Source of the DNA: Myxococcota bacterium
GTDB taxonomy: Bacteria > Myxococcota_A > UBA796 > UBA2385
Direction of reading: 5' to 3'
DNA: 30,358 bases
NCBI GenBank assembly: GCA_036126975.1
Contig: JAYYRS010000489.1
Coordinates: 1-30,358, forward strand
The translations under genes were made by a program, and so were the position numbers. The number at the start of each line of letters is the position of its first letter. The first letter of the stretch is position 1. Of this stretch, positions 4,462 through 23,973 are shown in pieces. The notes under the pieces were generated by a model. It was not told the DNA's origin, did no database searches, and saw nothing but the letters and a program-made list of their open reading frames with translations.

Positions 4462-4477
4462 AGTTGCCTTCCATACG

Positions 4478-4624
4478 TCTCCCCAGGGCTTAGGGAAGCC
4501 GGTTCGAATCCGGCACGGGCCCGCCACCGTGATCGGTCAGGCTCTGTCACCAGGCCACTGGGTCGTTGACCTGGGAAGGCGACAGGGACGACGGCCGTAA
4601 GTCGGGAAACCTTCCTGGGCGAGA
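4478..4624 (+). ncRNA. Cobalamin (B12) riboswitch
   Basis: AGGGAA (4492), T-loop arm GCCGG-TTCGAAT-CCGGC, ACGG-GCCCGCCA-CCGT arm, GCCACTG...TGGGAAGGC, and 3' AAGTCGGGAAACC. Closing helix TCTCCCCAGG (4478-4487) pairs with CCTGGGCGAGA (4614-4624). Lies upstream of cbiA. Confidence 0.92.
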
Positions 4625-4867
4625 AGACCACCGGTCCTCGGGTACAGGACTGCGTCCTCCGCGTGGGTCGTGCCGGGAATCTCTGGTACGCCGCGCTCCC
4701 CGCCAGGCCGCCCACGCCTGCCGCCGGGACCCGGACCGACGCACTTCCCTCTCCGGGGCCGGTCGCCCCGAGCACCGACGCCTCGTGAACCGCAGACCCC
4801 CCATCTCCCCGCAACCGGCCGCCCCGGCCCGTCTCCTCCCCGCCCGACGGCGCGCCGAGGGCCGGTC

Positions 4868-6280
4868 GTGACGGGCCTGCCAACCATTGTCGTCGCGGGC
4901 ACCGGATCCGGCACCGGCAAGACCACGGTGGTGTGCGCCTTGGCTTGTGCGCTCGCGGACCGGGGACTGGACGTTCGGCTGTTCAAGGCCGGGCCGGACT
5001 ACCTGGATCCGACCTTCCACCAGGCGGCCCTCGGTCGGCCGTCTCGCAATCTGGATGGTTGGATGACCGGCGAGGGCGGCGTCCTCGCCACCTTCACACG
5101 GGGAACGGCCGCGCTGGAAGGACCAGGCATTGCGATCGTCGAGGGCGTGATGGGCCTGTTCGACGGCCGCTCACCGGATTCCCTCGAAGGATCCGGCGCA
5201 CAGCTCGCGCAGCTCCTTGGCGCGCCGGTCGTGCTTGTGGTGGACGCGAGCGGAATGGCCCGGTCTGCCGCTGCCGTGGTGGAAGGCTTCGCCAACCACG
5301 CCGACGGCGTGGACGTGCGCGGCGTAGTGCTGAACCGTGTCGGTTCAGCCCGGCACACGGACATCATCCGACAGGCCCTGGACCGAGCCCGGACGCCCCA
5401 CCCCGTCACCACGCTCGGGGGCCTGCCCAAGAACCACGACCTCTTCCTGCCCTCCCGCCACCTCGGGCTGATGGCCGCCCACGTGAGCGAAGCCACCCGG
5501 ACCGAGGCCGCGCGCGCCCGATGGCGTGCCGCGCTGTCACAGTGGGCGACGGAGCACATCGACCTCGACAGCCTCCTGGCCCTGGCGTCGACCGCACGTC
5601 CCCCCTCGGGGGGGGCCGACGCGCCGCGCATCCCCGTGTCCCGCGCACGCATCGGCCTGGCGATGGACGATGCCTTCCACTTCTACTACCTCGACAATCT
5701 CGACCTCTTGCGCGAGGCGGGTGCCGAGCTGGTTCCCTTCTCGCCGCTGGCCGACACCCAACTCCCCGCCAACCTGGACGGGCTCATCTTCGGCGGCGGC
5801 TACCCGGAAGAGCACGCCGCCGCCCTGGCGGAAAACCGCGACTTCCGGTCGGCGGTCCTCGAATTCGCCCGCAGCGGGCGACCCGTCTACGGCGAATGCG
5901 GCGGCCTGATGTACCTCGGCGATGCCCTCACCGACGCGCAGGGAACCCGCCACCCCATGGTCGGGGCGCTCCCCACCCTCACGGCCATGGAGCCGAAGCT
6001 GCGTTCGCTCGGCTACCGGGAGGTCACCACCACCGCAGACTCCCCCGTGGGCCCTGCGGGAACCGTGTTCCGCGGCCACGAGTTCCACTACTCCGGGCTG
6101 ACCGACGACGGTGGGTGTGCCGATGTGTATCGGTGGACGGGGCGGCGGGGGTCGGGGACCGGCGGATTCCTGCGCGGTCGGGTCCTGGGCTCCTACATCC
6201 ACGCCCACTGGGGAAGCAATCCGTCCGTCGCCGATGCCTTCGTGTCTGCATGCGCTGACGCGCGGGGGGCGGGAGCATGA
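4868..6280 (+). CDS. cbiA: Cobyrinate a,c-diamide synthase (CbiA/CobB)
   Basis: IVVAGTGSGTGKTT P-loop, FKAGPDYLD, IVEGVMGLFDG, LPSRHLGL, glutaminase GECGGLMYLG, GHEFHYS, GSYIHAHW. GTG 4868 with GAGGG SD. Confidence 0.95.
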   Translation: MTGLPTIVVAGTGSGTGKTTVVCALACALADRGLDVRLFKAGPDYLDPTFHQAALGRPSRNLDGWMTGEGGVLATFTRGTAALEGPGIAIVEGVMGLFDGRSPDSLEGSGAQLAQLLGAPVVLVVDASGMARSAAAVVEGFANHADGVDVRGVVLNRVGSARHTDIIRQALDRARTPHPVTTLGGLPKNHDLFLPSRHLGLMAAHVSEATRTEAARARWRAALSQWATEHIDLDSLLALASTARPPSGGADAPRIPVSRARIGLAMDDAFHFYYLDNLDLLREAGAELVPFSPLADTQLPANLDGLIFGGGYPEEHAAALAENRDFRSAVLEFARSGRPVYGECGGLMYLGDALTDAQGTRHPMVGALPTLTAMEPKLRSLGYREVTTTADSPVGPAGTVFRGHEFHYSGLTDDGGCADVYRWTGRRGSGTGGFLRGRVLGSYIHAHWGSNPSVADAFVSACADARGAGA

Positions 6281-6375
6281 TGCACACGGATGCCATGCCG
6301 GCTCGCTGCCGGGCCTCGGTTGCGGGCGAAACCGTCTGGCCCACGACGGCACGACGCGGAGGGCGGAACCCATGA
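6277..6375 (+). CDS. Possible 32-aa bridging mini-ORF
   Basis: ATG overlaps the cbiA stop (ATGA) with GGGAG SD; its TGA overlaps the cbiD start (ATGA). MMHTDAMPARCRASVAGETVWPTTARRGGRNP; no recognisable homology. Confidence 0.35.
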   Translation: MMHTDAMPARCRASVAGETVWPTTARRGGRNP

Positions 6376-7586
6376 GTTCGTCCCGCGTTCCCAAGGACCG
6401 CTCGAAGATGCGCACCGGATTCACCACCGGTGCCAACGCCTGCGCGGCGGCGGTCGCCGCCCTGCGCGTCCTGACCGGACACGAGCTGGATCCCTGGGAG
6501 GGCACACTGCCCGAGCTCACCGCCGACCGGTATGACACGCTCGTGGGATCCGTGACGATCGCGATCCCGAACGGCGACCGGGTCCGGTTTGCGGTGCGGA
6601 CAGCCGAGCTCGATCCGGACGCCGCCGTCCCAGTCGCCCGATGTTCGGTGATCAAGGACGGCGGAGACGATCCCGACTGCACCCACCGGGCAGAGATCTG
6701 GGCCGCGGTGCGGCTCACCGAGCGCCCGGGTGAAGTCGAACTGATCGGCGGCCCAGGCGTGGGCCAGATCACCCGGCCCGGACTCGGCCTCCCGGTGGGC
6801 GGGCCTGCCATCAACCCCGTCCCTCGGCGCAACATCACCGAGCAGCTCGCCGAGCTCCTGCCGCCGGGCGCAGGCGCTGAGGTGACCATCGGCGTCCTCG
6901 GTGGCGAGGAGATGGCCAAGAAGACCCTCAACGCACGCCTGGGCATCGTGGGCGGCATCTCCATCCTCGGCACGACGGGCATCGTGCGCCCGTACTCTAC
7001 GGCCGCGTTCCGCGCGTCCGTCAGCCAGGCCATCGATGTCGCCGGGAAGCTCGGACTGCAGGAGATCGTGGTGACGACCGGTGGTCGCTCGGAACGGTTC
7101 GGGCAGGCCCTGCGAAACGACCTGTGTGAACAGGCCTTTGTCCAGATGGGCGACTTCGTCGGCCATGCGCTCTCCCACGCTTCCCGCACCGGCATCCGTC
7201 GGATCACGATCTGCGGAATGATGGGCAAGCTGTCGAAAATGGCCGATGGCCGGACCATGACCCATGCCAAGGGCTCCGCGGTCAACATGGTGCTGCTCTC
7301 CGACCTCGCCCGGAAGGCCGGCGTTCCCGAGGAGACCTGCGCCGAGATCCTTGATGCCAACACGGGCCGCCATGTCGCCGAGCTGGTGACGGCCACGGGG
7401 CACCAGGATGCCTTCTTCGGGGAGATCTGCGAGCGCGTGCAGGTCGTCCTGCTCGACCATCTCTCCGCCCGATTCCCCGAGCCCCCCGAGCTGTGCGTCC
7501 TGTTCGTCGACTTCGGCGGAGCACTGCTGGGCCGCTGGCCGGCCCACGCCCTCACCCCCCTCTCGCAGGAGACCATCGATGCCTGA
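6372..7586 (+). CDS. cbiD: Cobalt-precorrin-5B C1-methyltransferase
   Basis: RTGFTTGANAAAA, VIKDGGDDPDCTH, GGPGVGQITRPGL, PAINPVPR, KTLNARLGIVGGISILGTTGIVRPYS. Confidence 0.95.
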   Translation: MSSSRVPKDRSKMRTGFTTGANACAAAVAALRVLTGHELDPWEGTLPELTADRYDTLVGSVTIAIPNGDRVRFAVRTAELDPDAAVPVARCSVIKDGGDDPDCTHRAEIWAAVRLTERPGEVELIGGPGVGQITRPGLGLPVGGPAINPVPRRNITEQLAELLPPGAGAEVTIGVLGGEEMAKKTLNARLGIVGGISILGTTGIVRPYSTAAFRASVSQAIDVAGKLGLQEIVVTTGGRSERFGQALRNDLCEQAFVQMGDFVGHALSHASRTGIRRITICGMMGKLSKMADGRTMTHAKGSAVNMVLLSDLARKAGVPEETCAEILDANTGRHVAELVTATGHQDAFFGEICERVQVVLLDHLSARFPEPPELCVLFVDFGGALLGRWPAHALTPLSQETIDA

Positions 7587-8256
7587 GACCACGGGAGACA
7601 TGCGCCAGATGACCGGCACCGGACGCCGCATCGAAGACAGCAGCTTCGACATCGTCAACCGGGAGGCGTGGCCCCACGACTTCGGGGAGGCCCACTGGGA
7701 GGTGGTCCGTCGCATCATCCACGCGACGGCCGATTTCGAGTACAAGCACCTCACGCGATTCTCCAAGGATGCGATCGACCGTGGCGCGCAGGCCTTCGTC
7801 GACGGGGCACCGCTCTACGTCGACGTCAAGATGATCCGGGTCGGGCTCAACGCCCGGCGCCTGGACCACTACGGCTGCACGGTCCATTGCTATGTGAGCG
7901 ACGAAGACGTCATCACCCAGGCCAAGGCCGAGAACTCCACGCGGTCCGCGGTCGGGGTGCGCAAGGCGTGGCAGCAGGGACTGCTGGAGGGCGGGATCGT
8001 CGCGGTCGGCAATGCGCCCACCGCCCTGCTCGAACTCGTCCGATTGATCCGGGAGGAGGGCGTGCGGCCCGCCCTGGTGGTGGGAATGCCCGTGGGCTTC
8101 GTCAATGCCGCGGAGAGCAAGGAGGAGCTGATCGAGCTCGAACGGGACGGCATCGAGGTGCCCTGGGTGATCACCCGAGGACGGAAGGGCGGCAGCACCG
8201 TCGTGGTGTCTGCGCTGCATGCCTTCATGTCCATTGCCGCCGGTGACCTCCGTTGA
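7579..8256 (+). CDS. cbiC: (Cobalt-)precorrin-8 methylmutase (CbiC/CobH)
   Basis: IEDSSF, RRIIHATADF, AVGNAPTAL, VGMPVGFVNAAESKE, GRKGGS. Confidence 0.95.
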   Translation: MPETTGDMRQMTGTGRRIEDSSFDIVNREAWPHDFGEAHWEVVRRIIHATADFEYKHLTRFSKDAIDRGAQAFVDGAPLYVDVKMIRVGLNARRLDHYGCTVHCYVSDEDVITQAKAENSTRSAVGVRKAWQQGLLEGGIVAVGNAPTALLELVRLIREEGVRPALVVGMPVGFVNAAESKEELIELERDGIEVPWVITRGRKGGSTVVVSALHAFMSIAAGDLR

Positions 8257-9488
8257 GTGTCACCATCATCGGAATCGGCACCGGGGCCGGGCTCGGTGCA
8301 GACGCATCGTCGGTCATCGCCGGCGCCGGCCTGCTGATCGGCGGGACCCGCCAGCTCGACCTGGCGGCCGAGCACGCACCCGATGCTGCCCGCTGGGACC
8401 TGACGGGCCGGCTCAAGGAGATCGCGCCCACCGCCGCCGAAGCGGTCTCCCAGGGCACGTCCGTCGTCGTGCTGGCCAGCGGGGATCCGATGTTCTACGG
8501 GGTCGGCAGCTACCTGGTGGGGCGCCTCGCAGCCGTCGGCATCGAGGCACGGGTGCTCCCCGCGCCCAGCGCCATCGCGGTGGCTGCTGCCCGTTTCGGA
8601 CTCAAGTGGAGCGACGCCCACGTCATCTCCGGGCACGGCCGACCGCTGCCCGACCTCGCCACGCTGCTCCATCGGCACGGCAAGCTCGCGATCCTCACCG
8701 ACGCCACCAACACGCCCGCCGAGATCGGGCGGCGCCTCACCGAGGCCGGCATCTCCGAGGGCACCGCCCATGTCGCCGAGGACCTGGGTTCCGCATCGGA
8801 ACGGACCCGGGTCGTGCCGATCCCGGCGCTCGGAGCACTCACCGACACCAGCGCGCTGAACGTGGTGCTCCTGACCGCGCCGCGGAGACACATCCCCACC
8901 ATCCCCTTCGACTCCGACGACGCATTCGATAAGAAGATGCCCAAAAAGGGGCTCATCACCAAGCGCGAGATCCGCGTACTGAGCCTCGCGGCCCTGGGCG
9001 TGGGAGCGGGCGACGTCTGCTGGGACATCGGTGCCGGGAGCGGCGCGGTCTCCATCGACATGGCGCACTGCGGGGCCTCAAGCGTGTGGGCGGTCGAGAA
9101 GAACCAGGATGGCTGTGAGATCGTCTCCGGCAACGTCGCTCGACACCGGGCCACTGCGGTGCGCGTCATCCACGCCAAGGCTCCCGACGGGCTCGCGGAC
9201 CTCCCCGACCCCGACCGGGTGTTCATCGGCGGCTCTGGTGGCAACCTGACCGCGCTCATCCATCTCATCATGGCGCGACTGCGGGTGGGCGGGACGCTGG
9301 TCATCAATCTGGCCACCGTCGAGAACCTCGCGGAGGCCCTGACCGCCCTCCGTGCGTGTGGCGCCCCCCACGAGAGCACCCAGGTCCAGGTGTCCCGTTC
9401 GAAGACCATCCTCGGTCGGCTGACGCGATTCGAGGCGCTCAACCCCATCACCATCATCCGGGCGACCCGCCCCGAGGAGCTCCGGTGA
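8253..9488 (+). CDS. cbiET: Bifunctional precorrin-6Y C5,15-methyltransferase (CbiE-CbiT fusion, CobL-type)
   Basis: N-terminal VLASGDPMFYGVG; C-terminal ITKREIR, WDIGAGSGAVS, PDRVFIGGSGG. TTG start overlaps the cbiC stop. Confidence 0.93.
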   Translation: MSVTIIGIGTGAGLGADASSVIAGAGLLIGGTRQLDLAAEHAPDAARWDLTGRLKEIAPTAAEAVSQGTSVVVLASGDPMFYGVGSYLVGRLAAVGIEARVLPAPSAIAVAAARFGLKWSDAHVISGHGRPLPDLATLLHRHGKLAILTDATNTPAEIGRRLTEAGISEGTAHVAEDLGSASERTRVVPIPALGALTDTSALNVVLLTAPRRHIPTIPFDSDDAFDKKMPKKGLITKREIRVLSLAALGVGAGDVCWDIGAGSGAVSIDMAHCGASSVWAVEKNQDGCEIVSGNVARHRATAVRVIHAKAPDGLADLPDPDRVFIGGSGGNLTALIHLIMARLRVGGTLVINLATVENLAEALTALRACGAPHESTQVQVSRSKTILGRLTRFEALNPITIIRATRPEELR

Positions 9489-10309
9489 TCGACGACGCGC
9501 TCAAGGCGCAGCCTCCTCGGGAGGGCATCGGCACCCTGTGGGGCGTCAGTGTCGGACCGGGCGCGCCAGACCTGATCACCATGCGGGCCCATCGCGTGCT
9601 CACCTCCGCCCCCGTGATTGCATGGCCTGCATGCAAGGCCGGCGCCACGTCCTACGCCTGGCGGATCATCCGCGAGTACATCGATCCGGACACGCAGCAG
9701 ACACTCGGGCTGGTCTTTCCCATGAACAAGGACTGGTCGGCACTGGTTCCGGCGTGGCGGGACTCGGCGGAGCAGATCCTGCGCCATCTCCACGCAGGGC
9801 GAGACGTCGCGTTCATCACGACCGGGGACGCGATGCTCTACAGCACCTTCCTTCACGTCTGGGAGGTGCTCCGCGAGATGGACCCCTCGGTTCCGGTCCA
9901 GGTGATTCCCGGCGTGAGCAGCATCAACGCAGCGAGCGCCCTGACCGGCGTACCGCTCGGGCAGGGAGACGAGCGCGTCGCGATCGTGCCGGCGACCTGG
10001 CACGAATCGCGTCTTCGGACGCTGATCACCGACACCGACACCGTGGTCCTCATGAAGGTGGCCCGGGTCCTGCCCCAGGTCATCACCCTGCTCGAAGAGA
10101 CCGGTCGCATCGATGAGGCGGTCCTCATCAGCCGCGGTACCGCCGAGCAGCAGATCGTCACGCGGGACCTCGCGCGCTTCCGCGACCGACGGCTCAACTA
10201 CCTCACGCTGGTGCTCGTCGCACGAGACCGCCCATTCCTCGCACGGCTTCGCTCCGAGGCCGAGTCAGACGCCCGTTTCAAGATCAATCGACAGGGAAGC
10301 CGTCCATGA
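9485..10309 (+). CDS. cbiL: (Cobalt-)precorrin-2 C20-methyltransferase (CbiL/CobI)
   Basis: LWGVSVGPGAPDLITMRA, VFPM, AFITTGDAMLYSTF, IPGVSS, VVLMKV. GTGA overlap with cbiET. Confidence 0.92.
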   Translation: MIDDALKAQPPREGIGTLWGVSVGPGAPDLITMRAHRVLTSAPVIAWPACKAGATSYAWRIIREYIDPDTQQTLGLVFPMNKDWSALVPAWRDSAEQILRHLHAGRDVAFITTGDAMLYSTFLHVWEVLREMDPSVPVQVIPGVSSINAASALTGVPLGQGDERVAIVPATWHESRLRTLITDTDTVVLMKVARVLPQVITLLEETGRIDEAVLISRGTAEQQIVTRDLARFRDRRLNYLTLVLVARDRPFLARLRSEAESDARFKINRQGSRP

Positions 10310-11190
10310 CCGTTCCTTCCACCGTCCACTTCGTCGGCGCCGGCCCTGGTGATCCCGAGCTGATCACGGTCAAGGGAGCCCGCCTGCTCCGCGAGGCCGA
10401 CTACGTCCTGTATACGGGCTCACTCGTGCCGCGTGAACTCTTCGAGGATCTGCCAGGGCAGGTCGAGGACAGCAAGGGCCTGGACATCCATCAGATCGTC
10501 GAACGCCTCGCCACCCACGCCCAGGCCGGTCGACAGGTGGTCCGCGTCCACACCGGAGACCCCGCCGTCTACGGTGCCGTGCAGGAGCAGCGGGCCCGGC
10601 TCCTCGTCGCCGGGATTCCGTCCGCCGTCGTACCGGGCGTCACCAGCGCGCTGGCTGCGGCCGCGGCCGTCAACGCCGAGCTGACCCTGCCGGACCTGAC
10701 CCAGACCATCGTCATCAGTCGGACCGAAGGGCGCACGGCGATGCCTGAAGGGGAGAAGCTCGCGGACCTGGCCCGCCTCGGCAATGCCTCGCTGTGTCTC
10801 TACCTGTCCGCCACCCTCACCGAGAAGGTCACCCGCGAGCTGATCGCGGGCGGACGGAGCCCTGACACGCCGGTCGCGGTGGTCCAGTACGCCTCGATGG
10901 CGGACAAGCAGCAGATCGTCCGATGCACCCTCGAGACCCTGGCCGACGAGATGCGCGCCGCCGGCATCCGCGCACAGGCGATGCTGCTCATCGGCCCCGC
11001 GCTGGACCCCACGATCCGAGAGCAGGTCGGGCGTTTCGACAGCCGGCTCTACGCCCGGGACTTCTCCCACCGGTTCCGCAAGGCCGGAGACGGGGACCGG
11101 GAGAGCCAGCCACGAACGCCACGGGGTAGCCGCTTCGAGGCCACCTCCACCCTCGTCCCCCACGCTGCCACCGGAGGCGCAGAGAAATGA
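10306..11190 (+). CDS. cbiF: (Cobalt-)precorrin-4 C11-methyltransferase (CbiF/CobM)
   Basis: VHFVGAGPGDPELITVKG, LYTGSLV, RVHTGDPAVYGAVQEQ, ELTLPDLTQT, SRLYARDFSH. Confidence 0.95.
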   Translation: MTVPSTVHFVGAGPGDPELITVKGARLLREADYVLYTGSLVPRELFEDLPGQVEDSKGLDIHQIVERLATHAQAGRQVVRVHTGDPAVYGAVQEQRARLLVAGIPSAVVPGVTSALAAAAAVNAELTLPDLTQTIVISRTEGRTAMPEGEKLADLARLGNASLCLYLSATLTEKVTRELIAGGRSPDTPVAVVQYASMADKQQIVRCTLETLADEMRAAGIRAQAMLLIGPALDPTIREQVGRFDSRLYARDFSHRFRKAGDGDRESQPRTPRGSRFEATSTLVPHAATGGAEK

Positions 11191-12137
11191 CATCTGAAGC
11201 TCCTGACACCCCGCGCGGCAAGCTGCTGCTGATCGGCTTCGGCCCTGGCGCCCACGAACACCTGACCTACCGCGCCCGTGCCGCGATCGCGGAGGCCGAG
11301 GTGGTCATCGGCTACAACACCTACATCAAGCTCATCGCAGACCTGCTGGAGGGCAAGGAGGTCCACCGGAAGGGCATGAGCGAAGAGCTCGACCGGGTCC
11401 ATCTCGCCTACGACATGGCCATGGCCGGCCGCAAGGTCGCCCTGATCAGCTCCGGTGACATCTGCGTCTATGGCATGGCCGGACCCGCGATGGAGGTGCT
11501 GACGGAGCGCGGCTGGACCGGGCTTGATGACCCGCGGGTCGAGGTCGAGGTGGTGCCGGGGATCAGCGCAGTCAATGCCATCGCCAGCCTCGTCGGCGCA
11601 CCGCTGACCCACGACTACTGCACCATCTCGCTGTCCGACCTGCTGACCCCGTGGCCGGTCATCGAGCGCCGGGTGATCGCCGCAACGGAGGGAGACTTCG
11701 TGGTGGCGCTCTACAACCCGCAGAGCAAGCGCCGGACCTGGCAGCTGCCCAAGACCGTGGAGCTGATGCTCGCGGGGGGACGGAGCCCGAAGACACCGGT
11801 GGCCATCGTCAAAAGCGCCTACCGGCGTCGCCAGAACATCGTCCTGACCACTCTCGACGACCTCTGCAACCACAAGATCGGGATGCTGACCACCGTGCTC
11901 GTGGGCAACTCCAACACGCGATTCGCGGCGGGCCGGATGGTGACGCCCCGGGGGTACTCCAACAAGTATGACGTGGGCAGCGGCCTGGTCCGCGCCGGCC
12001 AGGAGCCACTGCGGAGTCTCAAACTCGATGAAGACGGCAACCCGATCGGCGGTGAGCTGGAAGAGAAGACCAACCGGGTCTACCCGGGTGCGACCGAGCA
12101 GCAGCCGGACGGCTCCCTGCCCGTGGACGTGCCATGA
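11187..12137 (+). CDS. cbiH: Precorrin-3B/cobalt-factor III C17-methyltransferase (CbiH/CobJ)
   Basis: IGFGPG, VIGYNTY, LISSGD..VYGMAG, GAPLTHDYCTISLSDLLTPW, LYNPQS, MVTPRGY. Confidence 0.95.
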   Translation: MTSEAPDTPRGKLLLIGFGPGAHEHLTYRARAAIAEAEVVIGYNTYIKLIADLLEGKEVHRKGMSEELDRVHLAYDMAMAGRKVALISSGDICVYGMAGPAMEVLTERGWTGLDDPRVEVEVVPGISAVNAIASLVGAPLTHDYCTISLSDLLTPWPVIERRVIAATEGDFVVALYNPQSKRRTWQLPKTVELMLAGGRSPKTPVAIVKSAYRRRQNIVLTTLDDLCNHKIGMLTTVLVGNSNTRFAAGRMVTPRGYSNKYDVGSGLVRAGQEPLRSLKLDEDGNPIGGELEEKTNRVYPGATEQQPDGSLPVDVP

Positions 12138-13246
12138 GCCTCGTCAGCGGCCTCGACGACATCGCGGTCATCACCCTGACCCGGCAGGGGATCGACGTCG
12201 CGGCGTCTCTCCAGGAGACCCTTCCCGCGGAGGTCACGGTCTACATCTCGGAAAAGTATGACGACGAGGCCCCCAAGGGCTGGACCCGATTCCCCCGTCG
12301 CATCTACCCCCTGGTCGATGAGATCTGGCCGCGCCACGAGGCGCTGATCTTCGTGATGGCCGCGGGCATCGTCGTCCGGGCCGTCGCCAAACACGTCCAG
12401 AGCAAGCTCTACGACCCCGGCGTCGTCGTCATGGACATCAAGGGCAAGTTCGCGGTGGCGCTGTGCAGTGGCCACCTTGGCGGCGCGAATGAACTGTGCA
12501 GGCTCATCGAGGAGCGGACCGGCGCGATCTCCGTGGTGACGACCGGCACCGACGTCAACAACACGCTCGCCCCTGACGTGCTCGCGAAGCAGATCGGCGC
12601 GCGGGTCGACGATTGGGAGCCCCTCAAGCTGGTCAGTGGCGCGCTCGTGGACACCCTCCCGGTTGGCGTCTTCGCAGAGCCAGGGATCGACGTCGGCGAC
12701 CTGGGCCCGTATGCCCGGAAGAAGGTCATCCAGGTGAAGGACCCCGGCGAGCTTCCCGAATACCGTGCCGCCGTCGTCGTCAGCCATCGGCTTCTCGCCG
12801 ACCCCGGCATCCCCACCATGTGGCTCCGACCCCCGGTCCTCGTCGTCGGCGTGGGGTGCAACCGCGGGACCTCTGAGGAGGAAATCGGCAGCGCCGTGGA
12901 GGCCGTGCTCACCGAAAACGACCTGGCCCTTTCGTCCGTCGTCCGCCTCGCCACCATCGAGAAGAAATCCGACGAACCCGGGCTGCTGGCCGCCGCTGCC
13001 GAACGGGACTGGCCGCTCTGGTGGTACCGCAACGACCAGATCAACGACCAGGCCCCCCCGTTCCCTGGCCGCAGCGACGTGGTCTTCAAGTATGTCGGGG
13101 TCTACGGCGTGTCGGAACCCGCCGCGATGCTGGCCGCCGGAACCGAACGCCTGCTCGTGGCGAAGCAGAAGCGCGGCAACCTGACCGTCAGCGTCGCGCG
13201 CATCGCCGGCGAGCCCCTCGCACCCGCCGGAGTGGTCACACCATGA
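12134..13246 (+). CDS. cbiG: Cobalt-precorrin-5A hydrolase
   Basis: MAAGIVVRAVA, KLYDPGVVVMD, SGHLGGANEL, VTTGTD, VGVGCNRG, GVYGVSEPAA. Confidence 0.95.
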   Translation: MSLVSGLDDIAVITLTRQGIDVAASLQETLPAEVTVYISEKYDDEAPKGWTRFPRRIYPLVDEIWPRHEALIFVMAAGIVVRAVAKHVQSKLYDPGVVVMDIKGKFAVALCSGHLGGANELCRLIEERTGAISVVTTGTDVNNTLAPDVLAKQIGARVDDWEPLKLVSGALVDTLPVGVFAEPGIDVGDLGPYARKKVIQVKDPGELPEYRAAVVVSHRLLADPGIPTMWLRPPVLVVGVGCNRGTSEEEIGSAVEAVLTENDLALSSVVRLATIEKKSDEPGLLAAAAERDWPLWWYRNDQINDQAPPFPGRSDVVFKYVGVYGVSEPAAMLAAGTERLLVAKQKRGNLTVSVARIAGEPLAPAGVVTP

Positions 13247-14436
13247 GTCGTGCTCTCGTCCTGATCGGTCATGGCAGCCGCCGGGCTGGCGGAAACAAGA
13301 AGGTCCTCGGCCTGGCAGAGCGCGTGAGCGAGCGCGCGGGACTGCCTGTGTTTCCCGGCTTTCTCGAGCTCGCCCAACCCCATGCCTCCGAGGCCATCGA
13401 CCGCGCCGTCGCGTCGGGCGCAGACGAGGTCGTGATCGTGCCAGCCGTTCTCCTGGCTGCCGGCCACGCCAAGAACGATGTGCCACTCCTGGTCAACCAG
13501 GCCCGCGGTCGGCATCCGGGCGTGCAGTTCTTCGCCGGACGACCCCTGGGGGTGAACGCCGGCATGCTGGCTGCGCTGCAGGACCGCCTGACCGCCGCCC
13601 GGCAGGAGCTCGGCCCCTGCGACGACGACCGGGTCGCCGTGCTCCTGCTGGGGCGCGGCAGCTCCGACCCGGATGCAAACGCCGACATCTTCAAGATCGG
13701 CCGCCTGCTCACCGAACGCCAGGGCCTGCTCGGCCATGAGGTCGGGTTCATCGGGGTCACGCAGCCCGATGTCGAGGCCGCCTTCAAGACGCTGGCAGCG
13801 CGCCGGCCCCGGCAGGTCGTGGTGATGCCCTACCTGCTCTACCCCGGAGTGCTGGTCGAGCGGGTCCGCAAGAAGGTCGCGGACCTCGCTGCGCTCTACC
13901 GGCGGCTCGATGTGCAGGTCACCGAGCCTGTCGGAACCCACCCTGCGGTCCTCGATGTCCTCCTGGAGCGCGCAGACGAGTCGGTCAACGGTACCGGGGG
14001 CATGTCCTGCGACACCTGCAAGTACCGGGCTCCGCTGCCGGGATTCCAGCACGAGGTGGGCGGCCTCCAGGCGCTCCGCAAGGCCAGGGCCCATGTGGAG
14101 ATCCCGGCTTCACCCGAGGTCAAGCCCCACGCGCACACCCCGCCCGTCAAGCACGTGCTCGTCTGTGTCAACCGAGACTGCGTCGACCGGGGGAGCCTCA
14201 CCACGCTCGACCGCCTCCGCCGGCGGATCCGGGCAGACCGACTCGGCAAGCGCATCCAGACCACGCGCGTGATGTGCATGGGGCGATGCGGGGAGGGACC
14301 GGCCGTCTGTGTGTACCCCGATGGCGTCTGGTACCGGAAGGTATCCGCAGAGGACGCCGACCTGATCTACGACCAGCACATCTGCGACAACCGCCCCGTC
14401 GGACACCTGATCGACCAGGTGATCGGCGGAACTTGA
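13243..14436 (+). CDS. cbiX: Long-form sirohydrochlorin cobaltochelatase CbiX fused to a thioredoxin-like [2Fe-2S] ferredoxin
   Basis: GHGSRR, FLELAQP, AAGHAKND, second domain GRGSSDPDAN, MSCDTCKYR Cys motif, then C-terminal CVNRDC...CMGRC..GP..VYPDGVWY. Confidence 0.92.
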   Translation: MSRALVLIGHGSRRAGGNKKVLGLAERVSERAGLPVFPGFLELAQPHASEAIDRAVASGADEVVIVPAVLLAAGHAKNDVPLLVNQARGRHPGVQFFAGRPLGVNAGMLAALQDRLTAARQELGPCDDDRVAVLLLGRGSSDPDANADIFKIGRLLTERQGLLGHEVGFIGVTQPDVEAAFKTLAARRPRQVVVMPYLLYPGVLVERVRKKVADLAALYRRLDVQVTEPVGTHPAVLDVLLERADESVNGTGGMSCDTCKYRAPLPGFQHEVGGLQALRKARAHVEIPASPEVKPHAHTPPVKHVLVCVNRDCVDRGSLTTLDRLRRRIRADRLGKRIQTTRVMCMGRCGEGPAVCVYPDGVWYRKVSAEDADLIYDQHICDNRPVGHLIDQVIGGT

Positions 14437-14455
14437 GTTCCAAAGGAGTTTTTCC

Positions 14456-14833
14456 ATGGCTTGCTACGAAGTCGCCTCGCTCCGGCTGGCGCTGCACAAC
14501 CTGCTCGGCGACCGGCCCGCCCACGAACGAACCCATGAAGAAGAGGAGCTCGGAAGCAAGCTGTCCGAGGACGGTCCGCTGAAGGCGCTCGCCAACGCCA
14601 CGAGCCTCGCCCAGATCCGCGCGGCCCTGGACGCGGCCGGACTGGAGCTCGAACAGCGGGTGGCGGACATGCCGGAGGATGCACCCCAGCTGGGCTACTG
14701 GCGCTCCCTGGTCGTCACCGTCAAGCGCACCCAGCGCGACCTGGCTCGGATGGCATCCGACCTGGAGCAGTACTACCGTGACCTGGACCTCGTCCACGAC
14801 ACCCTCCACGAGATCTTTCCCGAGAGTGACTGA
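14456..14833 (+). CDS. DUF3209-like helical protein
   Basis: AAAGGAG SD. N-terminus MACYEVASLRLALHNLLG resembles DUF3209 (M[SA]CHEI.ALRL) as I recall it; needs an HMM check. Confidence 0.7.
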   Translation: MACYEVASLRLALHNLLGDRPAHERTHEEEELGSKLSEDGPLKALANATSLAQIRAALDAAGLELEQRVADMPEDAPQLGYWRSLVVTVKRTQRDLARMASDLEQYYRDLDLVHDTLHEIFPESD

Positions 14834-14836
14834 GCC

Positions 14837-15517
14837 ATGGCGAAGACAAAATGGGCGACGGTGACGGGACACGAGGACCTCGGTGGCGGGGTCCACCGCA
14901 TCCACTGTCTCGCAGACGAGCCTCTCCACCACGTGGCAGGCAACTACGTGATCCTCCGGAGCACCGTCCCGAACCCCGACAAGCCCGGTGAGGTGCTCAA
15001 GAAGGCGTACTCGATATCCAGCGCGCCCGATGCGGAATCGCCCCAGCGATTCCACTTCACCATCGTCGACGTGGGCGCGATGAGCGCGTGGCTTGCGAGC
15101 CAGCGCGTCGACGGGCGCGTGGAGTTCTCCGGCCCATGGGGAAGGCGGTTCCGGGCCCAGCCCGATGACCCAGACGGTCCCGTCCACCTGTTCGCGACGG
15201 GCACGGGGTTCTCCCCGGTCGGGGCGATGGCCATCACGCGGAGTCGTTCCGGGGCCACGCCGGTCGGCGTCTGGTGGCAGACGGAGCACACCTACGACGA
15301 TGGGGTCCTCGCCGCACTGAAGCAGGACCCGCGGTTTTCGGTCACCGTCGGTGCCCACGTTGCCGATGCCGTACCGGCCGAGCCCGAGGCCCTGTACTTC
15401 CTCGCCGGGGATGGCGCCGTCATCATTCCGCTGTGCGAGCGACTCGAGCAGGCCGGCGTGCCCGACGCGCACATCCGAACCGAGTTCTTCTTCAACAAGC
15501 CCGCCAAGCCGACATGA
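14837..15517 (+). CDS. Ferredoxin-NADP+ reductase-like FAD-binding oxidoreductase
   Basis: GNY, KAYSISS (RxYS-type), GAMS, GPWG, FATGTGFSP, C-terminal TEFF. Confidence 0.85.
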   Translation: MAKTKWATVTGHEDLGGGVHRIHCLADEPLHHVAGNYVILRSTVPNPDKPGEVLKKAYSISSAPDAESPQRFHFTIVDVGAMSAWLASQRVDGRVEFSGPWGRRFRAQPDDPDGPVHLFATGTGFSPVGAMAITRSRSGATPVGVWWQTEHTYDDGVLAALKQDPRFSVTVGAHVADAVPAEPEALYFLAGDGAVIIPLCERLEQAGVPDAHIRTEFFFNKPAKPT

Positions 15518-16362
15518 CGAGACCATCGCCAGGCGGGCCGGGCTGCGAGCCCGGCGTGGTGTATCTGGTCGGGGCGGGCCCGGGGGACCCGGGCCTGTTG
15601 ACCTGCCGTGCCCTCCGCCTCCTGGAGACCGCCGAGGTGGTCCTCCATGATGCACTCGTCACGGAAGAGGTCCTCGCCCTGTCGCCCGGGGAGCGGGTCA
15701 ACGTCGGCAAGCGGTCCGAGCACCACCTCGCCCGGCAGGGCGGGATCGCAGCGATGATGGTGACACAGGCCCGGCAGGGCCGACGCGTCGTCCGTCTCAA
15801 GGGCGGAGACCCCGGCATCTTCGGTCGCGGAGGGGAGGAGATGCAGTCCCTTCGCGCCGCCAACGTGCCCTACGAGGTTGTGCCGGGCGTCACCTCCGCA
15901 CTCGCTGCCAGTGCGCTGTCGGGGATCACCCTCACCCACCGCAAGCTCTCCGGCGCGGTCACGCTCATGACGGGTCATGCCGCCGCCAGGACCGACCGGG
16001 GCATCCTCCGGTACGAGGTCCTGGCAGAACTCGACCACACGCTGGTCGTGCTGATGGGTCTGGCGCGCCTGCCGGTCATCGCAGACCGGCTGCTCGCAGC
16101 CGGTCGGGACCCCGAGACACCCGTCGCCGTCGTCCAGGCCGCCTCTACCGCAGGTCAGCGGACCATTCGGGGCACGCTCCGCAGCATCTCTGCGGTCGCG
16201 GAGGCGGCAGGGATCGCGAGTCCGGCCACGGTCATCATCGGTCCAGTGGCCGCGTTGTGCGATGAACTGGCCTGGCGCCCGGACCGACTCGGTCCCGAAC
16301 CCTACCCCCCGGGCGCACGCGTTCATCTTCCCCAGCCGGATGACGAGGCCGCCGATGGCTGA
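15514..16362 (+). CDS. cobA: Uroporphyrinogen-III C-methyltransferase (SUMT), canonical motifs
   Basis: VYLVGAGPGDPGLLT, VGKR, VVRLKGGDPGIFGRGGEE, VPGVTS, LTHR, LVVLMG. ATGA overlap with the FNR-like gene. Confidence 0.93.
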   Translation: MTRPSPGGPGCEPGVVYLVGAGPGDPGLLTCRALRLLETAEVVLHDALVTEEVLALSPGERVNVGKRSEHHLARQGGIAAMMVTQARQGRRVVRLKGGDPGIFGRGGEEMQSLRAANVPYEVVPGVTSALAASALSGITLTHRKLSGAVTLMTGHAAARTDRGILRYEVLAELDHTLVVLMGLARLPVIADRLLAAGRDPETPVAVVQAASTAGQRTIRGTLRSISAVAEAAGIASPATVIIGPVAALCDELAWRPDRLGPEPYPPGARVHLPQPDDEAADG

Positions 16363-16843
16363 TCGACCCCGCCGGACCACTCTCGGGTCCCTGATCGAGA
16401 GCATGCTGCCCCGCTGCGGTCCCATCACCCTCCGCAACCCGTTCGGTGTGATCGAGCTTCGGGGAACGGATCTCTACCTCCGGCGGGGACGGACGCTCAG
16501 CCTCTACCACCGGGAGGCCCAGCGTGGAGAGGCGCGCAGCCACGCGCATCTCTACGTCTCCGGCCTGTCCTGGGCCCGCGTTGTCGAGCGGGATGGCATC
16601 ACGCCTCGCCTCTCGTTCTGGCCCGACGCACGAGAGGAGGAGGAGAAGGCGCCCCTGACCATCGCCTTCCCGCGGTTCTACGACTGGTCGCGCGTTCCCA
16701 TCCCGGACAATCGGGCCCACTTCGCGGCCTGGGTGTCGAAGCACGGACGCACGTTCATCCTCGAGCCGGATCCACCGGTTGCGCGCTCCCGTCGCGCTGC
16801 AGCGGGCTTTCCCGGCAGCGACCAGGTCGGAGGGCCGGGGTGA
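16355..16843 (+). CDS. Stand-alone ChuX/HutX-like protein (162 aa), paralog of the N-domain of 3201-4229
   Basis: 8-nt overlap with the cobA stop. Shares LRNP[YF]G..ELRG, YHR, RSH.HL, TP.L.FWPD, PLT..FP.FY.W and PIP...W...[YH]G..F.LEP with 3201-4229. Confidence 0.8.
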   Translation: MADRPRRTTLGSLIESMLPRCGPITLRNPFGVIELRGTDLYLRRGRTLSLYHREAQRGEARSHAHLYVSGLSWARVVERDGITPRLSFWPDAREEEEKAPLTIAFPRFYDWSRVPIPDNRAHFAAWVSKHGRTFILEPDPPVARSRRAAAGFPGSDQVGGPG

Positions 16844-16986
16844 CACCCCACCGGCACGCCCGCTTCCTGTCCCTCTCCACCGCTGCGCACCCTGCAGCCC
16901 GCCGCCAGCGGCGTGGCGGGGCCGGGCTCCGCGGCGCCCCCACGGTCCGGATGGCAAGGCCTCCAACCATTACGGCGGTCCGATGA
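16840..16986 (+). CDS. Possible 48-aa bridging mini-ORF
   Basis: GTG overlaps the upstream TGA (GTGA 16840-16843); its TGA overlaps the next ATG (ATGA 16983-16986). Arg/Ala-rich; no recognisable homology. Confidence 0.3.
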   Translation: MTPHRHARFLSLSTAAHPAARRQRRGGAGLRGAPTVRMARPPTITAVR

Positions 16987-17768
16987 AGGTGGCGCTTGTC
17001 GGTGCCGGACCCGGTGCGCCCGACCTGATCACGGTACGGGGGCTCCAGCGAATCCAGCACGCCGATGTCGTTCTGTACGACCGTCTGGTCTCTCCCGCCC
17101 TCATCGACCACGCTCCGGCCCACGCGCGTCTGGTGAATGTGGGAAAGGCGCCCGAGCGCAGGCGCTTTCCCCAGGCGGAGATCAATCGTCTGCTCGTGGA
17201 GGCAGCCCGGAGCGGCCTGCGCGTGGTCCGGCTGAAGGGGGGTGATCCCTTCGTCTTCGGTCTCGGTTCCAGCGAAGCGAGCGCGCTGGCGGACGCGAAG
17301 ATCCCATTCGATGTCGTCCCCGGGCTCACGGTTGCGGTTGCGCTTCCCGGCCTCGGAGGCGTCCCGCTGACGGTGCAGCGGATGGTCACGGCGTTCACCG
17401 TGCTGAGCGGCCACCATCCGCCCGGACATCCGGAGGCCGCGGACTTCGACCGGCTCCCGCGGAACAGCACCCTGGTCGTCCTCATGGGGCGACGCCATCT
17501 GGGCGCCATCGTCCAGCGTCTTCGCGAGACCGACTGGAGCCGGGACACACCGGTCCTGCTGGTGGCGTCGGGCACGACTGCAGAGGAGCAGACGGTGTCC
17601 ACCACCCTCGCGGACGCCGAGCACGCCGCTCGACCCCTGGGCGCACCGATGACGATGATCATCGGTGCAGGTGTCGCCTTCCGGGAACACCTCCTGCCCT
17701 GGCTGCATCGGGTCCATCCGGAAGAGCAGCCGTCCGCCTGGGGGACCGCACGGGAACCCGGCTCGTAG
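16983..17768 (+). CDS. Second SUMT-like tetrapyrrole methyltransferase with divergent catalytic motifs
   Basis: VALVGAGPGAPDLITVRG, VLYDRLV, VGK, VVRLKGGDPFVFG; but FGLGSSE replaces FGRGGEE and LTVQR replaces LTHR. Confidence 0.88.
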   Translation: MKVALVGAGPGAPDLITVRGLQRIQHADVVLYDRLVSPALIDHAPAHARLVNVGKAPERRRFPQAEINRLLVEAARSGLRVVRLKGGDPFVFGLGSSEASALADAKIPFDVVPGLTVAVALPGLGGVPLTVQRMVTAFTVLSGHHPPGHPEAADFDRLPRNSTLVVLMGRRHLGAIVQRLRETDWSRDTPVLLVASGTTAEEQTVSTTLADAEHAARPLGAPMTMIIGAGVAFREHLLPWLHRVHPEEQPSAWGTAREPGS

Positions 17769-21415: not shown

Positions 21416-22453
21416 CTACCCCTTCCCCACGCGCCATACGAGCACACCGCCTTTCGCGTCCAGGCCTGCCAGGGCGCGGTCGTCGGGGCGCCACGCGAGC
21501 CCGCTCACCCGGTCACCCAGGAGCGCCGCGCCCACCGCAGCTCCCTCTCCATCGCCCGCGACCGTCCAGACGACCACGCCCCCGTCGCGACCGCCCGAGG
21601 CGAGTCGCCGCCCCCGGTGGGAAAACTCCAACGTCGTGATGGGGAGGACATGCAGCTTCAGCGAACCGGGGCGTGTGCCCTCGGGACCATCCCCCTCGAA
21701 GCTCCAGACGGTGACGATCTCCGCGCCACCGGTGGCGAGCAGTTTGCCCGAAGCGTCGAATGCCAGCGCGGACGGTTTGCCAAAGTACCCACTCATCATC
21801 GAGTCTTCGCCCGTGGACCGGCGCCAGAAATGCACGGAATTGTCCTGGCTCCCACACGCCACGATCTCGCCGTCGGGGCTCAGCGCCATCGATACCAGGG
21901 AGCCCTTCCATTCCAGCTTCTCCAGCAACGACCCGCTGGATGCGCCCAGAAAGGCCACGCGCCCGTAGCACGCGGTCGCGAGCTGCTCGGAGCCCGCCCA
22001 GGCGATGGCGCTGACGGTGCTGGGATGTTCCTCGGACTGCCAGGCCTGGTTCCCTTCGCGGTCGAACACGTGGACCCGACGGGACATCACGACCGCCAGA
22101 TACCGACCATCCGGCGACCACGCCAGGTGCTCCACCCAGCCGCGCCCGACCTCGACGGATCGTTCCATCGTGCCGTCACTGGCCCGCCAGTACCGGACGT
22201 GTCCATCCTGGCCCGCCGTGGCGAAGAGATCCCCGTCGGGGTGAGCCGCCATTGCGAGCAGCCCCTGCCCATGGCTGTCCGCATGCTTCCAGCGCACCGC
22301 GCCGGATGTGCCTTCAAAGCCGAACAGCCCGCCAGCGACATCGCCGACGACCAGCAGGGAACCGCCGAGGGCCCAGTGGCATGCGATGGCGTAGTCATCG
22401 ACCGTCGCGGCCCATCCGCGCCGGAGTACACCTCTGGCGACCGCGCCACTCAC
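21416..22453 (-). CDS. WD40-repeat beta-propeller protein
   Basis: Repeats such as ATAGQDGHVRYW, LAWSPDG..LA, ACGSQDNSVHFW, LASGGRDGGVVVW. GTG 22453 overlaps the upstream TGA (GTGA). Confidence 0.9.
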   Translation of the reverse strand: MSGAVARGVLRRGWAATVDDYAIACHWALGGSLLVVGDVAGGLFGFEGTSGAVRWKHADSHGQGLLAMAAHPDGDLFATAGQDGHVRYWRASDGTMERSVEVGRGWVEHLAWSPDGRYLAVVMSRRVHVFDREGNQAWQSEEHPSTVSAIAWAGSEQLATACYGRVAFLGASSGSLLEKLEWKGSLVSMALSPDGEIVACGSQDNSVHFWRRSTGEDSMMSGYFGKPSALAFDASGKLLATGGAEIVTVWSFEGDGPEGTRPGSLKLHVLPITTLEFSHRGRRLASGGRDGGVVVWTVAGDGEGAAVGAALLGDRVSGLAWRPDDRALAGLDAKGGVLVWRVGKG

Positions 22454-23799: not shown

Positions 23800-23973
23800 T
23801 TCTGTCCTCTCTGTTGCTCGTTCCATGAACCATCTGGCGTGGTTGCGCGACCGTCTCCCGCACCCTGCTCCGTTGTCTTCCGCACTCCCGACTCATGGCC
23901 CGCTCGGCGCCATCTTCGCAGCCGGACGCCCGAGGACCGCAGAGCCGGAACCGCATCGCAACGGCCCGACCCC

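Follow-up and report, generated by a model that had tools for sequence, protein, structure and literature searches.

A conserved CbiX-ferredoxin, DUF3209 and flavoprotein redox module in cobalamin operons that lack cbiJ

The window analysed here is a 30,358-nucleotide stretch of a Myxococcota genome (GenBank assembly GCA_036126975.1, contig JAYYRS010000489.1, positions 1 to 30,358 of the forward strand). It carries an operon for the early-cobalt (anaerobic-type) corrin pathway of cobalamin (B12) synthesis. Within that operon, positions 13243–15517 hold three adjoining genes that encode a cobaltochelatase joined to a ferredoxin domain (CbiX::Fdx), a small DUF3209 protein, and a flavoprotein related to ferredoxin-NADP reductase (FNR-like). 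The best explanation of this block is that it represents, in this genome, a conserved redox module characteristic of corrin pathways lacking CbiJ. The substrate of CbiJ is cobalt-precorrin-6A, made by CbiD, and exactly one two-electron reduction is required at this stage (PMC7242693). Comparative evidence makes it an even prospect that a chain of NAD(P)H, flavin adenine dinucleotide (FAD), and Fe-S centres would supply the two electrons that CbiJ normally gives. Held more tentatively, at somewhat under an even chance, is the fuller reading that CbiX::Fdx and DUF3209, together with the FNR-like protein in lineages that have it, make up a flavin/iron-sulfur cobalt-precorrin reductase system, unrelated to CbiJ and complexed with the chelatase and CbiD. 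The users of such a system would be B12 producers in at least 10 phyla, including Leptospira, Nitrospira, myxobacteria, Thermus, and haloarchaea.

CbiJ/CobK was searched for as PF02571 (EC 1.3.1.106 / 1.3.1.54), and CbiC was taken as the marker of a B12 producer. The window is contig C489 of a 4.08-Mb metagenome-assembled genome (MAG; G000) that is 68.7% complete in 662 contigs with ~69% G+C, and a PF02571 search of this genome returned nothing even at E ≤ 1. CbiJ above the cut-off was found in none of 401 genomes sampled from the same phylum, all except the window's at least 90% complete, and CbiC and DUF3209 occur in exactly the same five of them. Four of the five are relatives with the same operon (G264, G336, G348, and G378; 93%–96% complete), in which the best PF02571 match has an E value of 0.03 and lies inside an 845-amino-acid open reading frame (ORF). 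Because these near-complete relatives also lack CbiJ, the absence is not an assembly gap and belongs to the operon type. The sequence-only reading of this DNA had reported cbiJ missing from the operon, as the profile searches of the whole genome and its relatives bear out. It had also allowed that cbiJ could lie elsewhere, which is rejected, there being no PF02571 match in near-complete relatives or in module-bearing complete genomes. None of the three module proteins of the window matches PF02571 either; the proposal is that they work in place of CbiJ, not that they are CbiJ.

Species genomes in GTDB were scanned with a seven-sequence DUF3209 alignment, which identified 80 loci in 79 further genomes. 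The presence of CbiJ was then tallied by group as follows.

DUF3209 genomes in the window's phylum: 5, with CbiJ in 0
DUF3209 genomes outside the window's phylum: 79, with CbiJ in 1
CbiC-positive, DUF3209-negative planctomycetes: 14, with CbiJ in 13 (E 1e-51 to 1e-76)
CbiC-positive, DUF3209-positive planctomycete: 1, with CbiJ in 0

The planctomycete rows derive from a 151-genome Planctomycetota sample in which 15 genomes encode CbiC. The further 79 genomes belong to at least eight bacterial phyla, and the 78 without CbiJ include complete genomes of Sorangium, Archangium, and Nitrospira defluvii; more than 15 module-bearing genomes without CbiJ are complete. Thermus thermophilus and Haloferax volcanii, included as controls, match CbiC and DUF3209, and CbiJ is not above the cut-off in either. 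In the Planctomycetota sample, CbiJ-positive genomes have a short CbiX fused to CbiC, and the full-length CbiX::Fdx is restricted to DUF3209 genomes. Replacement of CbiJ, as the sequence-only reading had proposed, agrees with the lack of free co-occurrence, CbiJ being present in 1 of 84 DUF3209 genomes versus 13 of 14 DUF3209-less B12 producers in one phylum. The anti-correlation spans about ten phyla and many closed genomes. No P value is attached to this pattern, since genomes that are related are not independent data points and an operon can move as a unit.

The features that make up the module in the window are as follows.

13243..14436, plus strand: cbiX::fdx, triple-module cobaltochelatase, 397 amino acids (Pfam CbiX, phmmer, motifs)
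14002..14019, plus strand: M-S-C-D-T-C motif (MxCxxC type) within cbiX (translation)
14149..14412, plus strand: thioredoxin-like [2Fe-2S] ferredoxin domain of CbiX, residues ~303–390 (phmmer)
14456..14833, plus strand: DUF3209 gene, 125 amino acids (PF11483, E 1.6e-40)
14837..15517, plus strand: FNR-type NAD(P)H:FAD oxidoreductase, 226 amino acids (PF00970, fold)

The earlier description of this block, an Fe-S-motif CbiX carrying a [2Fe-2S] ferredoxin beside a Cys-start DUF3209-like protein and an FAD-dependent FNR-like protein, agrees with the motifs, domain matches, and coordinates, and its gene content is correct in every detail that could be checked by Pfam, motifs, and fold. The cbiG stop overlaps the cbiX start and the FNR-like stop overlaps the cobA start, both as ATGA; a Shine-Dalgarno sequence (AAAGGAG) precedes the DUF3209 gene, and the FNR-like gene is set off by a 3-nucleotide gap. 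The three genes are translationally coupled within a cbi operon controlled by a B12 riboswitch.

The chelatase consists of a two-domain class II enzyme, an MSCDTC motif, a CxxC/His-rich linker, and a C-terminal thioredoxin-like [2Fe-2S] domain. Its tandem CbiX domains match PF01903 in two stretches (E 1.6e-50) and the SirB structure PDB 5ZT7 across residues 1–261 (E 1.3e-30). The [2Fe-2S] domain scores 22.0 bits against PF01257, below the cut-off of 24.8, and phmmer matched it to PDB 1F37 (Aquifex Fd4, E 2.5e-12) and to HydB/NuoE-type domains, among them HydB 7Q4V (E 4.7e-10). In an alignment of 79 CbiX orthologues, H10, H75, C256, C259, H284, H298, C308, C313, C345, C349, and H379 are invariant or nearly so. 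H10 (kept in 78 of 79) and H75 (79 of 79) are probably the metal-binding/catalytic histidine pair of the CbiX/SirB N-terminal domain. C256 and C259 of the M254-S-C-D-T-C259 segment, a putative Fe-S site, are invariant in all 79 sequences, as are the four predicted [2Fe-2S] ligands C308, C313, C345, and C349 (Cx4C ... Cx3C). The MSCDTC-type motif is also found in the Thermus-type and haloarchaeal orthologues.

The DUF3209 protein starts with M-A-C and is a full-length match to PF11483 (residues 1–123 of 124, E 1.6e-40). It is ~40% identical to TTHB059 (PDB 2EHW, E 2.2e-19), with a template modelling (TM) score of 0.86–0.92 for the model, and its AlphaFold2 (AF2) model is all-helical with a predicted local distance difference test (pLDDT) value of 95. 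Alignment of the family shows M1, C3, E5, L9, R10, Y81, H114, and H118 to be invariant. The family is small (36 clusters at 50% identity among 1.8 billion representatives), and a fold search of the PDB and AlphaFold DB clusters returned matches solely to the family itself, leaving the fold uninformative. The protein could serve as a ligand to a shared cluster, as a cobalt or tetrapyrrole carrier, or as an adaptor.

The FNR-like protein scores 24 bits against PF00970 (FAD_binding_6; cut-off 21.1). It carries an FAD motif of the R/KxYS type, K55-A-Y-S, with K55 invariant in a 16-sequence alignment, and a conserved NAD(P)H motif of the GxGxxP type, G122-T-G-F-S-P; both motifs are kept across 63 orthologues. 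The NAD(P)H domain has no match to Pfam NAD_binding_1 and bears a deletion of ~25 residues in the window's clade. The AF2 model adopts the FNR fold (Foldseek E 7.6e-15), with both domains aligned and TM scores by query of 0.64–0.68, and its closest structures are flavohemoglobin, GcoB, CarAd, BenC, and NqrF, reductase modules that feed 2Fe-2S or heme partners. Orthologues score 140–305 bits against the family profile and other FNRs at most 92; the group is a distinct one, linked to cbi operons. Source annotations name its members just "FAD-dependent oxidoreductase," "flavodoxin reductase," or "ferredoxin-NADP reductase."

Single ORFs of 604–658 amino acids that join the FNR-like protein to CbiD (Pfam FAD_binding_6 plus CbiD) were found at five loci (L033, L034, L045, L048, and L065) from Leptospirales, Lentisphaerales, Pseudobdellovibrionaceae, and Planctomycetota. 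More such fusions are present in the protein database (P0072, P0074, and P0075, the last annotated as CbiD alone). Fusion of proteins that act at consecutive steps is a classical sign of functional linkage, and because CbiD produces the substrate of CbiJ, these fusions point to a functional tie between the FNR-like protein and the CbiJ step. As a separate observation, two Leptospiraceae MAGs encode a CbiD with an N-terminal extension of ~238 amino acids and no Pfam match to the extension, right after a separate FNR-like gene (L037:11105-12937 and L050:11073-12917).

The neighbourhoods of the 80 DUF3209 loci were counted by tblastn with the window proteins. By record title, the genomes include, in the Myxococcota, about 12 complete Sorangium genomes as well as Archangium, Cystobacter, Vitiosangium, and Kofleriaceae; Nitrospira defluvii, Leptospira, Pirellulales and other Planctomycetota, and Ca. 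Binataceae; and Oligoflexia/Pseudobdellovibrionaceae, Lentisphaerales, and gammaproteobacterial MAGs. The cbiX::fdx gene is upstream of DUF3209 at 79 of the 80 loci and no more than 200 nucleotides away at 68. An FNR-like gene follows DUF3209 within 200 nucleotides at 66 of the 77 loci with room for one, with a divergent copy at one more (L076), and cbiD is the gene after the FNR-like gene at 51. The commonest order is cbiX::fdx, DUF3209, FNR-like, cbiD, cbiC, cbiET, cbiL, cbiG, cbiH, cbiF. The arrangement recurs in this many other genomes and is not due to chance.

Three kinds of locus depart from this order. A Thermus-type contig (L082) has cbiG, a 367-amino-acid CbiX with CDTC and the 2Fe-2S cysteines, DUF3209, and a methylase. 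On a haloarchaeal contig, a 405-amino-acid CbiX that is 41% identical end to end to the window's and has the same motifs is followed by DUF3209. In a Pirellulales variant (L024, L059, L079, L051, and L061), the order is cbiX::fdx, DUF3209, cbiC, a free 101-amino-acid thioredoxin-like [2Fe-2S] ferredoxin, bluB, and cbiD. The Thermus-type and haloarchaeal loci keep CbiX::Fdx and DUF3209 without an FNR-like gene; these two proteins are therefore the constant core, with DUF3209 as the obligate small partner of the chelatase, and the FNR-like protein joins them often but not always. A nitroreductase-family gene at the FNR-like position in the Pirellulales variant was considered as a flavoprotein swap and rejected, as it is BluB (TIGR02476, 242–271 bits).

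Two further observations concern individual loci. At nine Sorangium loci (L052, L057, L058, L064, L068, L071, L072, L074, and L080), 2.5–7.5 kb of other DNA lies between cbiX::fdx and DUF3209, which are adjacent elsewhere. Two contigs of one Myxococcota MAG (L002 and L003) hold two full operon copies of the type closest to the window's, with DUF3209 proteins 56% and 53% identical to the window's; the pair may reflect true duplication or a bin of mixed origin.

No other redox machinery is encoded in the operon, and the parts of the module fit an electron chain because of the FAD and NAD(P)H motifs, the reductase-like fold, the invariant 2Fe-2S cysteines, and the CxxC motif. In the proposed mechanism, the flavoprotein would take hydride from NAD(P)H onto FAD and hand single electrons to the [2Fe-2S] domain, from which they would pass onward to the CxxC/His site and/or DUF3209. 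Two electrons would then reduce cobalt-precorrin-6A, the product of CbiD, to cobalt-precorrin-6B, in place of the NADH-using CbiJ. Alternatively, an earlier intermediate held by the chelatase may be reduced. We infer how the electrons travel, what the substrate is, and whatever DUF3209 contributes from gene content, motifs, synteny, fusions, and phyletic pattern. The sequence-only reading had put forward an FNR-ferredoxin chain that replaces CbiJ or controls the cobalt redox state of intermediates; the absence of cbiJ, the anti-correlation, and the FNR-like::CbiD fusions speak for replacement, but the FNR-like protein is not universal. The idea is thus partly supported, with the emphasis moved from "FNR plus ferredoxin" to "CbiX::Fdx plus DUF3209, usually fed by FNR."

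Several observations weigh against replacement of CbiJ by this chain. The usual targets of FNR-fold enzymes are metal centres or flavins rather than C=C bonds, and a redox domain fused to the chelatase may point to chelation as readily as to the CbiJ step. The cluster of the Pirellulales variant has no FNR-like gene, and the query used did not detect one elsewhere in five genomes of that variant; nor is the gene present at the Thermus-type and haloarchaeal loci, and it is reported deleted in L. santarosai and L. alstoni (PMC4758666). Because several lineages with the module lack it, the FNR-like protein is not an indispensable catalyst, and it looks like a dedicated but replaceable electron donor. 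One genome, the Pirellulales MAG G434, has the module (L081, on G434:C173, and L035) plus a canonical cbiJ, the latter on another contig in a cobQ-cbiB-cbiJ-pduO-cbiA cluster; this could be true coexistence or bin contamination. The anti-correlation itself may stem from one ancestral event and horizontal transfer, with operons spreading as units. Among the controls, Sulfolobus acidocaldarius and Methanosarcina acetivorans lack both CbiJ and DUF3209, and Geobacter and Desulfovibrio are named as CbiJ-less B12 producers without DUF3209 (PMC545781). Since such producers exist, there is another solution to the CbiJ step.

The alternative that fares best, although we consider it rather unlikely, is that the module acts in the chelatase step or, in line with the second option of the sequence-only reading, sets the redox poise of cobalt intermediates early in the pathway, and that a separate, unlinked enzyme carries out the CbiJ step. 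Possible roles would be to keep cobalt or the Fe-S cluster of CbiX reduced, to oxidise precorrin-2 to sirohydrochlorin, or to reduce cobalt-factor II/III, with DUF3209 perhaps a metal or tetrapyrrole chaperone. The Fe-S domain is joined to the chelatase and not to CbiD, DUF3209 accompanies cbiX (79 of 80 loci), the CbiX linker has conserved histidines, and the invariant Cys3, Glu5, His114, and His118 of DUF3209 would be compatible with metal binding. The CbiJ-less producers without DUF3209, both the controls and those in the literature (PMC545781), also fit this alternative. It leaves unexplained that 83 of 84 module genomes lack CbiJ, versus 13 of 14 module-less planctomycete producers that have it, and it leaves the FNR-like::CbiD fusions unexplained.

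Precorrin-2 dehydrogenase (SirC) bears on the same alternative, in that the window's clade and the Pirellulales variant have no recognisable copy of it. TIGR01470 (cysG_Nterm/SirC) was not found in the window's genome, its four relatives, or the 12 genomes with the closest DUF3209 (G401–G412), despite a full cbi operon. It is above the cut-off in 48 of the 79 module genomes, all complete ones included, and replacement of SirC by the module is rejected as a general rule. By these profile searches, the window's clade appears to be without both redox enzymes of the canonical route, SirC and CbiJ. In SirC-less clades, the chain could carry two electrons from precorrin-2 to the later reduction, which would make ring building internally redox-balanced.

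It is improbable that reduction of cobalt-precorrin-6A is the work of the FNR-like flavoprotein alone, using NAD(P)H and FAD directly on the product of CbiD, with CbiX::Fdx and DUF3209 doing a separate job. Its position directly upstream of cbiD at 51 loci, its fusion to CbiD in at least five lineages, and its status as a distinct orthologue group confined to cbi operons would suit such a role. The gene is, however, missing in the Pirellulales variant, the Thermus-type loci, haloarchaea, and two Leptospira species (PMC4758666), all of which have the module and no CbiJ, and the structures nearest to the protein are of enzymes that donate single electrons to metal centres.

A role for the module as the corrinoid Co(II)-to-Co(I) reductase that serves adenosyltransferase, analogous to CobR, PduS, or Fpr-FldA, is distinctly improbable. 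Flavin/Fe-S reductases are a known solution for this step, and a PduO-type adenosyltransferase gene lies between the FNR-like gene and cbiD at three Binataceae loci (L025, L049, and L018), and a BtuR-type one follows DUF3209 at L016. Such adjacency is limited to few loci, the three proteins have no CobR-type Flavin_Reduct, PduS, or RnfC-type match in Pfam or NCBIfam, and neither the CbiJ anti-correlation nor the CbiD fusion is explained. A canonical cbiJ in the ~31% of the MAG that is unassembled, with the module unrelated to the gap, is scarcely credible: a genome 68.7% complete in 662 contigs leaves room for one, but four relatives at 93%–96% and more than 15 complete module genomes are without CbiJ.

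Among the closest described clusters is cobI/III of Leptospira interrogans, in which LB_162 is cbiD, LB_163 a "flavodoxin reductase," LB_164 a "hypothetical protein," and LB_165 a "ferredoxin-related protein" (Fouts et al. 2016, PMC4758666). These are the same four genes in the majority order cbiX::fdx, DUF3209, FNR-like, cbiD, which is also seen at the Leptospira loci L040, L067, and L073, and Leptospira FNR-like proteins are among the top matches of the family search. The window differs in that its block lies between cbiG and cobA, with the FNR-like gene not beside cbiD. That paper assigns no function to LB_163–LB_165 and does not discuss the missing CbiJ (PMC4758666).

The pHV3 cluster of Haloferax volcanii contains HVO_B0054 (cbiX1) and HVO_B0053 (DUF3209), and CbiJ is missing (Pfeiffer & Dyall-Smith 2021, PMC8305020). 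Its authors suggest that cluster genes without an assigned role could fill the CbiD and CbiJ gaps, which are consecutive, and favour a 4Fe-4S ferredoxin and a pyrroloquinoline quinone (PQQ) protein, not CbiX or DUF3209 (PMC8305020). Haloarchaea resemble the window in having the triple-module CbiX (41% identical, with MSCDTCKY and the 2Fe-2S cysteines) directly before DUF3209. Unlike the window, they have no CbiD and no FNR-like protein, and instead have a Fer4_15 ferredoxin, a LAGLIDADG_4 protein, and a PQQ propeller. Thermus thermophilus HB8 has a DUF3209 member like the window's protein, TTHB059 (PDB 2EHW), a structural-genomics entry without function. At the Thermus-type locus, DUF3209 follows a 367-amino-acid CbiX with CxxC and a 2Fe-2S domain, as in the window, but no FNR-like gene adjoins.

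CbiJ/CobK is the proposed functional equivalent, giving two electrons to (cobalt-)precorrin-6A after CbiD/CobF; it has no sequence or fold relation to the module, consists of one NAD(P)H-dependent protein, and contains neither flavin nor Fe-S. The long CbiX of Bacillus (Priestia) megaterium is described as having a 4Fe-4S centre in MxCxxC and a His-rich tail (Leech et al. 2003, as given in PMC7242693). Like the window's CbiX, it is a two-domain class II chelatase followed by MxCxxC and a histidine-rich sequence. The window's protein differs in its extra, complete thioredoxin-like [2Fe-2S] domain. B. megaterium has CbiJ and is not known to have DUF3209. The FNR-type reductases GcoB (5OGX), CarAd (7C3A), BenC (1KRH), flavohemoglobin (1GVH), and Fre (1QFJ) have the FAD/NAD(P)H fold and motifs in common with the window's flavoprotein, which by analogy may follow the same logic of feeding a 2Fe-2S or heme partner. 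It differs from them in having only 226 amino acids, no ferredoxin or heme domain fused to it, and an NAD(P)H domain that is shortened in the window's clade, and in belonging to a separate, cbi-linked group.

The CbiJ step was recorded as missing in delta-proteobacteria (PMC545781, 2004) and is an open issue in haloarchaea (PMC8305020, 2021; PMC6719526). It has stood as a gap in the pathway for some 20 years, and genome-based calls of B12 producers often hinge on CbiJ. No paper on the bacterial CbiJ anti-correlation or the FNR-like::CbiD fusion was found in the searchable literature. In a large class of operons with wide phylogenetic spread, that gap is narrowed here to two or three named genes, and the module is a candidate non-homologous route for a known pathway step. 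If this is true, the best-studied of the cofactor pathways would acquire a non-homologous enzyme system, and the long-CbiX Fe-S centre and DUF3209 would gain a function. Predictions of B12 production would be corrected for Nitrospira, myxobacteria, planctomycetes, and Leptospira, and engineered B12 pathways would have an alternative part.

The operon in the window is one plus-strand unit in the order cbiA-D-C-ET-L-F-H-G-cbiX::fdx-DUF3209-FNRl-cobA, followed by a small ChuX-like ORF and a second paralogue of uroporphyrinogen-III C-methyltransferase (SUMT). Its remaining features are as follows.

4469..4632, plus strand: cobalamin riboswitch ahead of the operon (Rfam RF00174, 87.7 bits, E 1.3e-20)
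4670..6280, plus strand: cbiA (Pfam GATase_3 and CbiA; NCBIfam NF002204, E 5e-145)
6282..7586, plus strand: cbiD, maker of cobalt-precorrin-6A, start uncertain (PF01888, E 3e-86; NF000849, E 1.4e-129)
7408..8256, plus strand: cbiC (PF02570, E 3.6e-72)
8253..9488, plus strand: cbiET fusion (TIGR02467 and TIGR02469)
9356..10309, plus strand: cbiL (TIGR01467, E 9e-74)
10306..11190, plus strand: cbiF (TIGR01465, E 9e-88)
11187..12137, plus strand: cbiH (TIGR01466, E 7.5e-93)
12134..13246, plus strand: cbiG (CbiG_N/mid/C)
15514..16362, plus strand: cobA, uroporphyrinogen-III C-methyltransferase (TIGR01469, E 2.6e-82)

A small ChuX/HutX-like ORF recurs in these operons and may encode a tetrapyrrole carrier. 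Nitrospira and some myxobacterial loci have it between the FNR-like gene and cbiD (L032:11101-11478, L022:3933-4307, L039:11090-11431, and L013:8025-8471; Pfam ChuX_HutX, E 8e-6 to 1e-3). The window's copy, past cobA at 16355-16843 on the plus strand, has weak similarity to those ORFs (pairwise E 0.007) and clear similarity to the one at L034:18962-19381 (E 8e-24). Divergent from the riboswitch, at 3201-4229 on the minus strand, is a gene for a 342-amino-acid protein whose N-terminal ~140 residues are paralogous to the ChuX-like ORF; its C-terminal half has no Pfam match and no match at any of the 80 loci. In haloarchaeal B12 operons, a Pfam LAGLIDADG_4 protein adjoins cbiX (L083:5867-6607). 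The LAGLIDADG-like half of the window's 342-amino-acid protein was considered as a component common with those operons and rejected for want of a match in the 80 loci.

The second SUMT paralogue, at 16779-17768 on the plus strand (TIGR01469, E 2e-72), belongs to the same operon, 3′ of the canonical cobA. About 4 kb past the operon, three genes in one orientation occupy 21416-24900 on the minus strand and encode a CbiM-like cobalt S-component (23974-24900), a COG0523/CobW-family GTPase (22450-23826), and a WD40 propeller (21416-22462).

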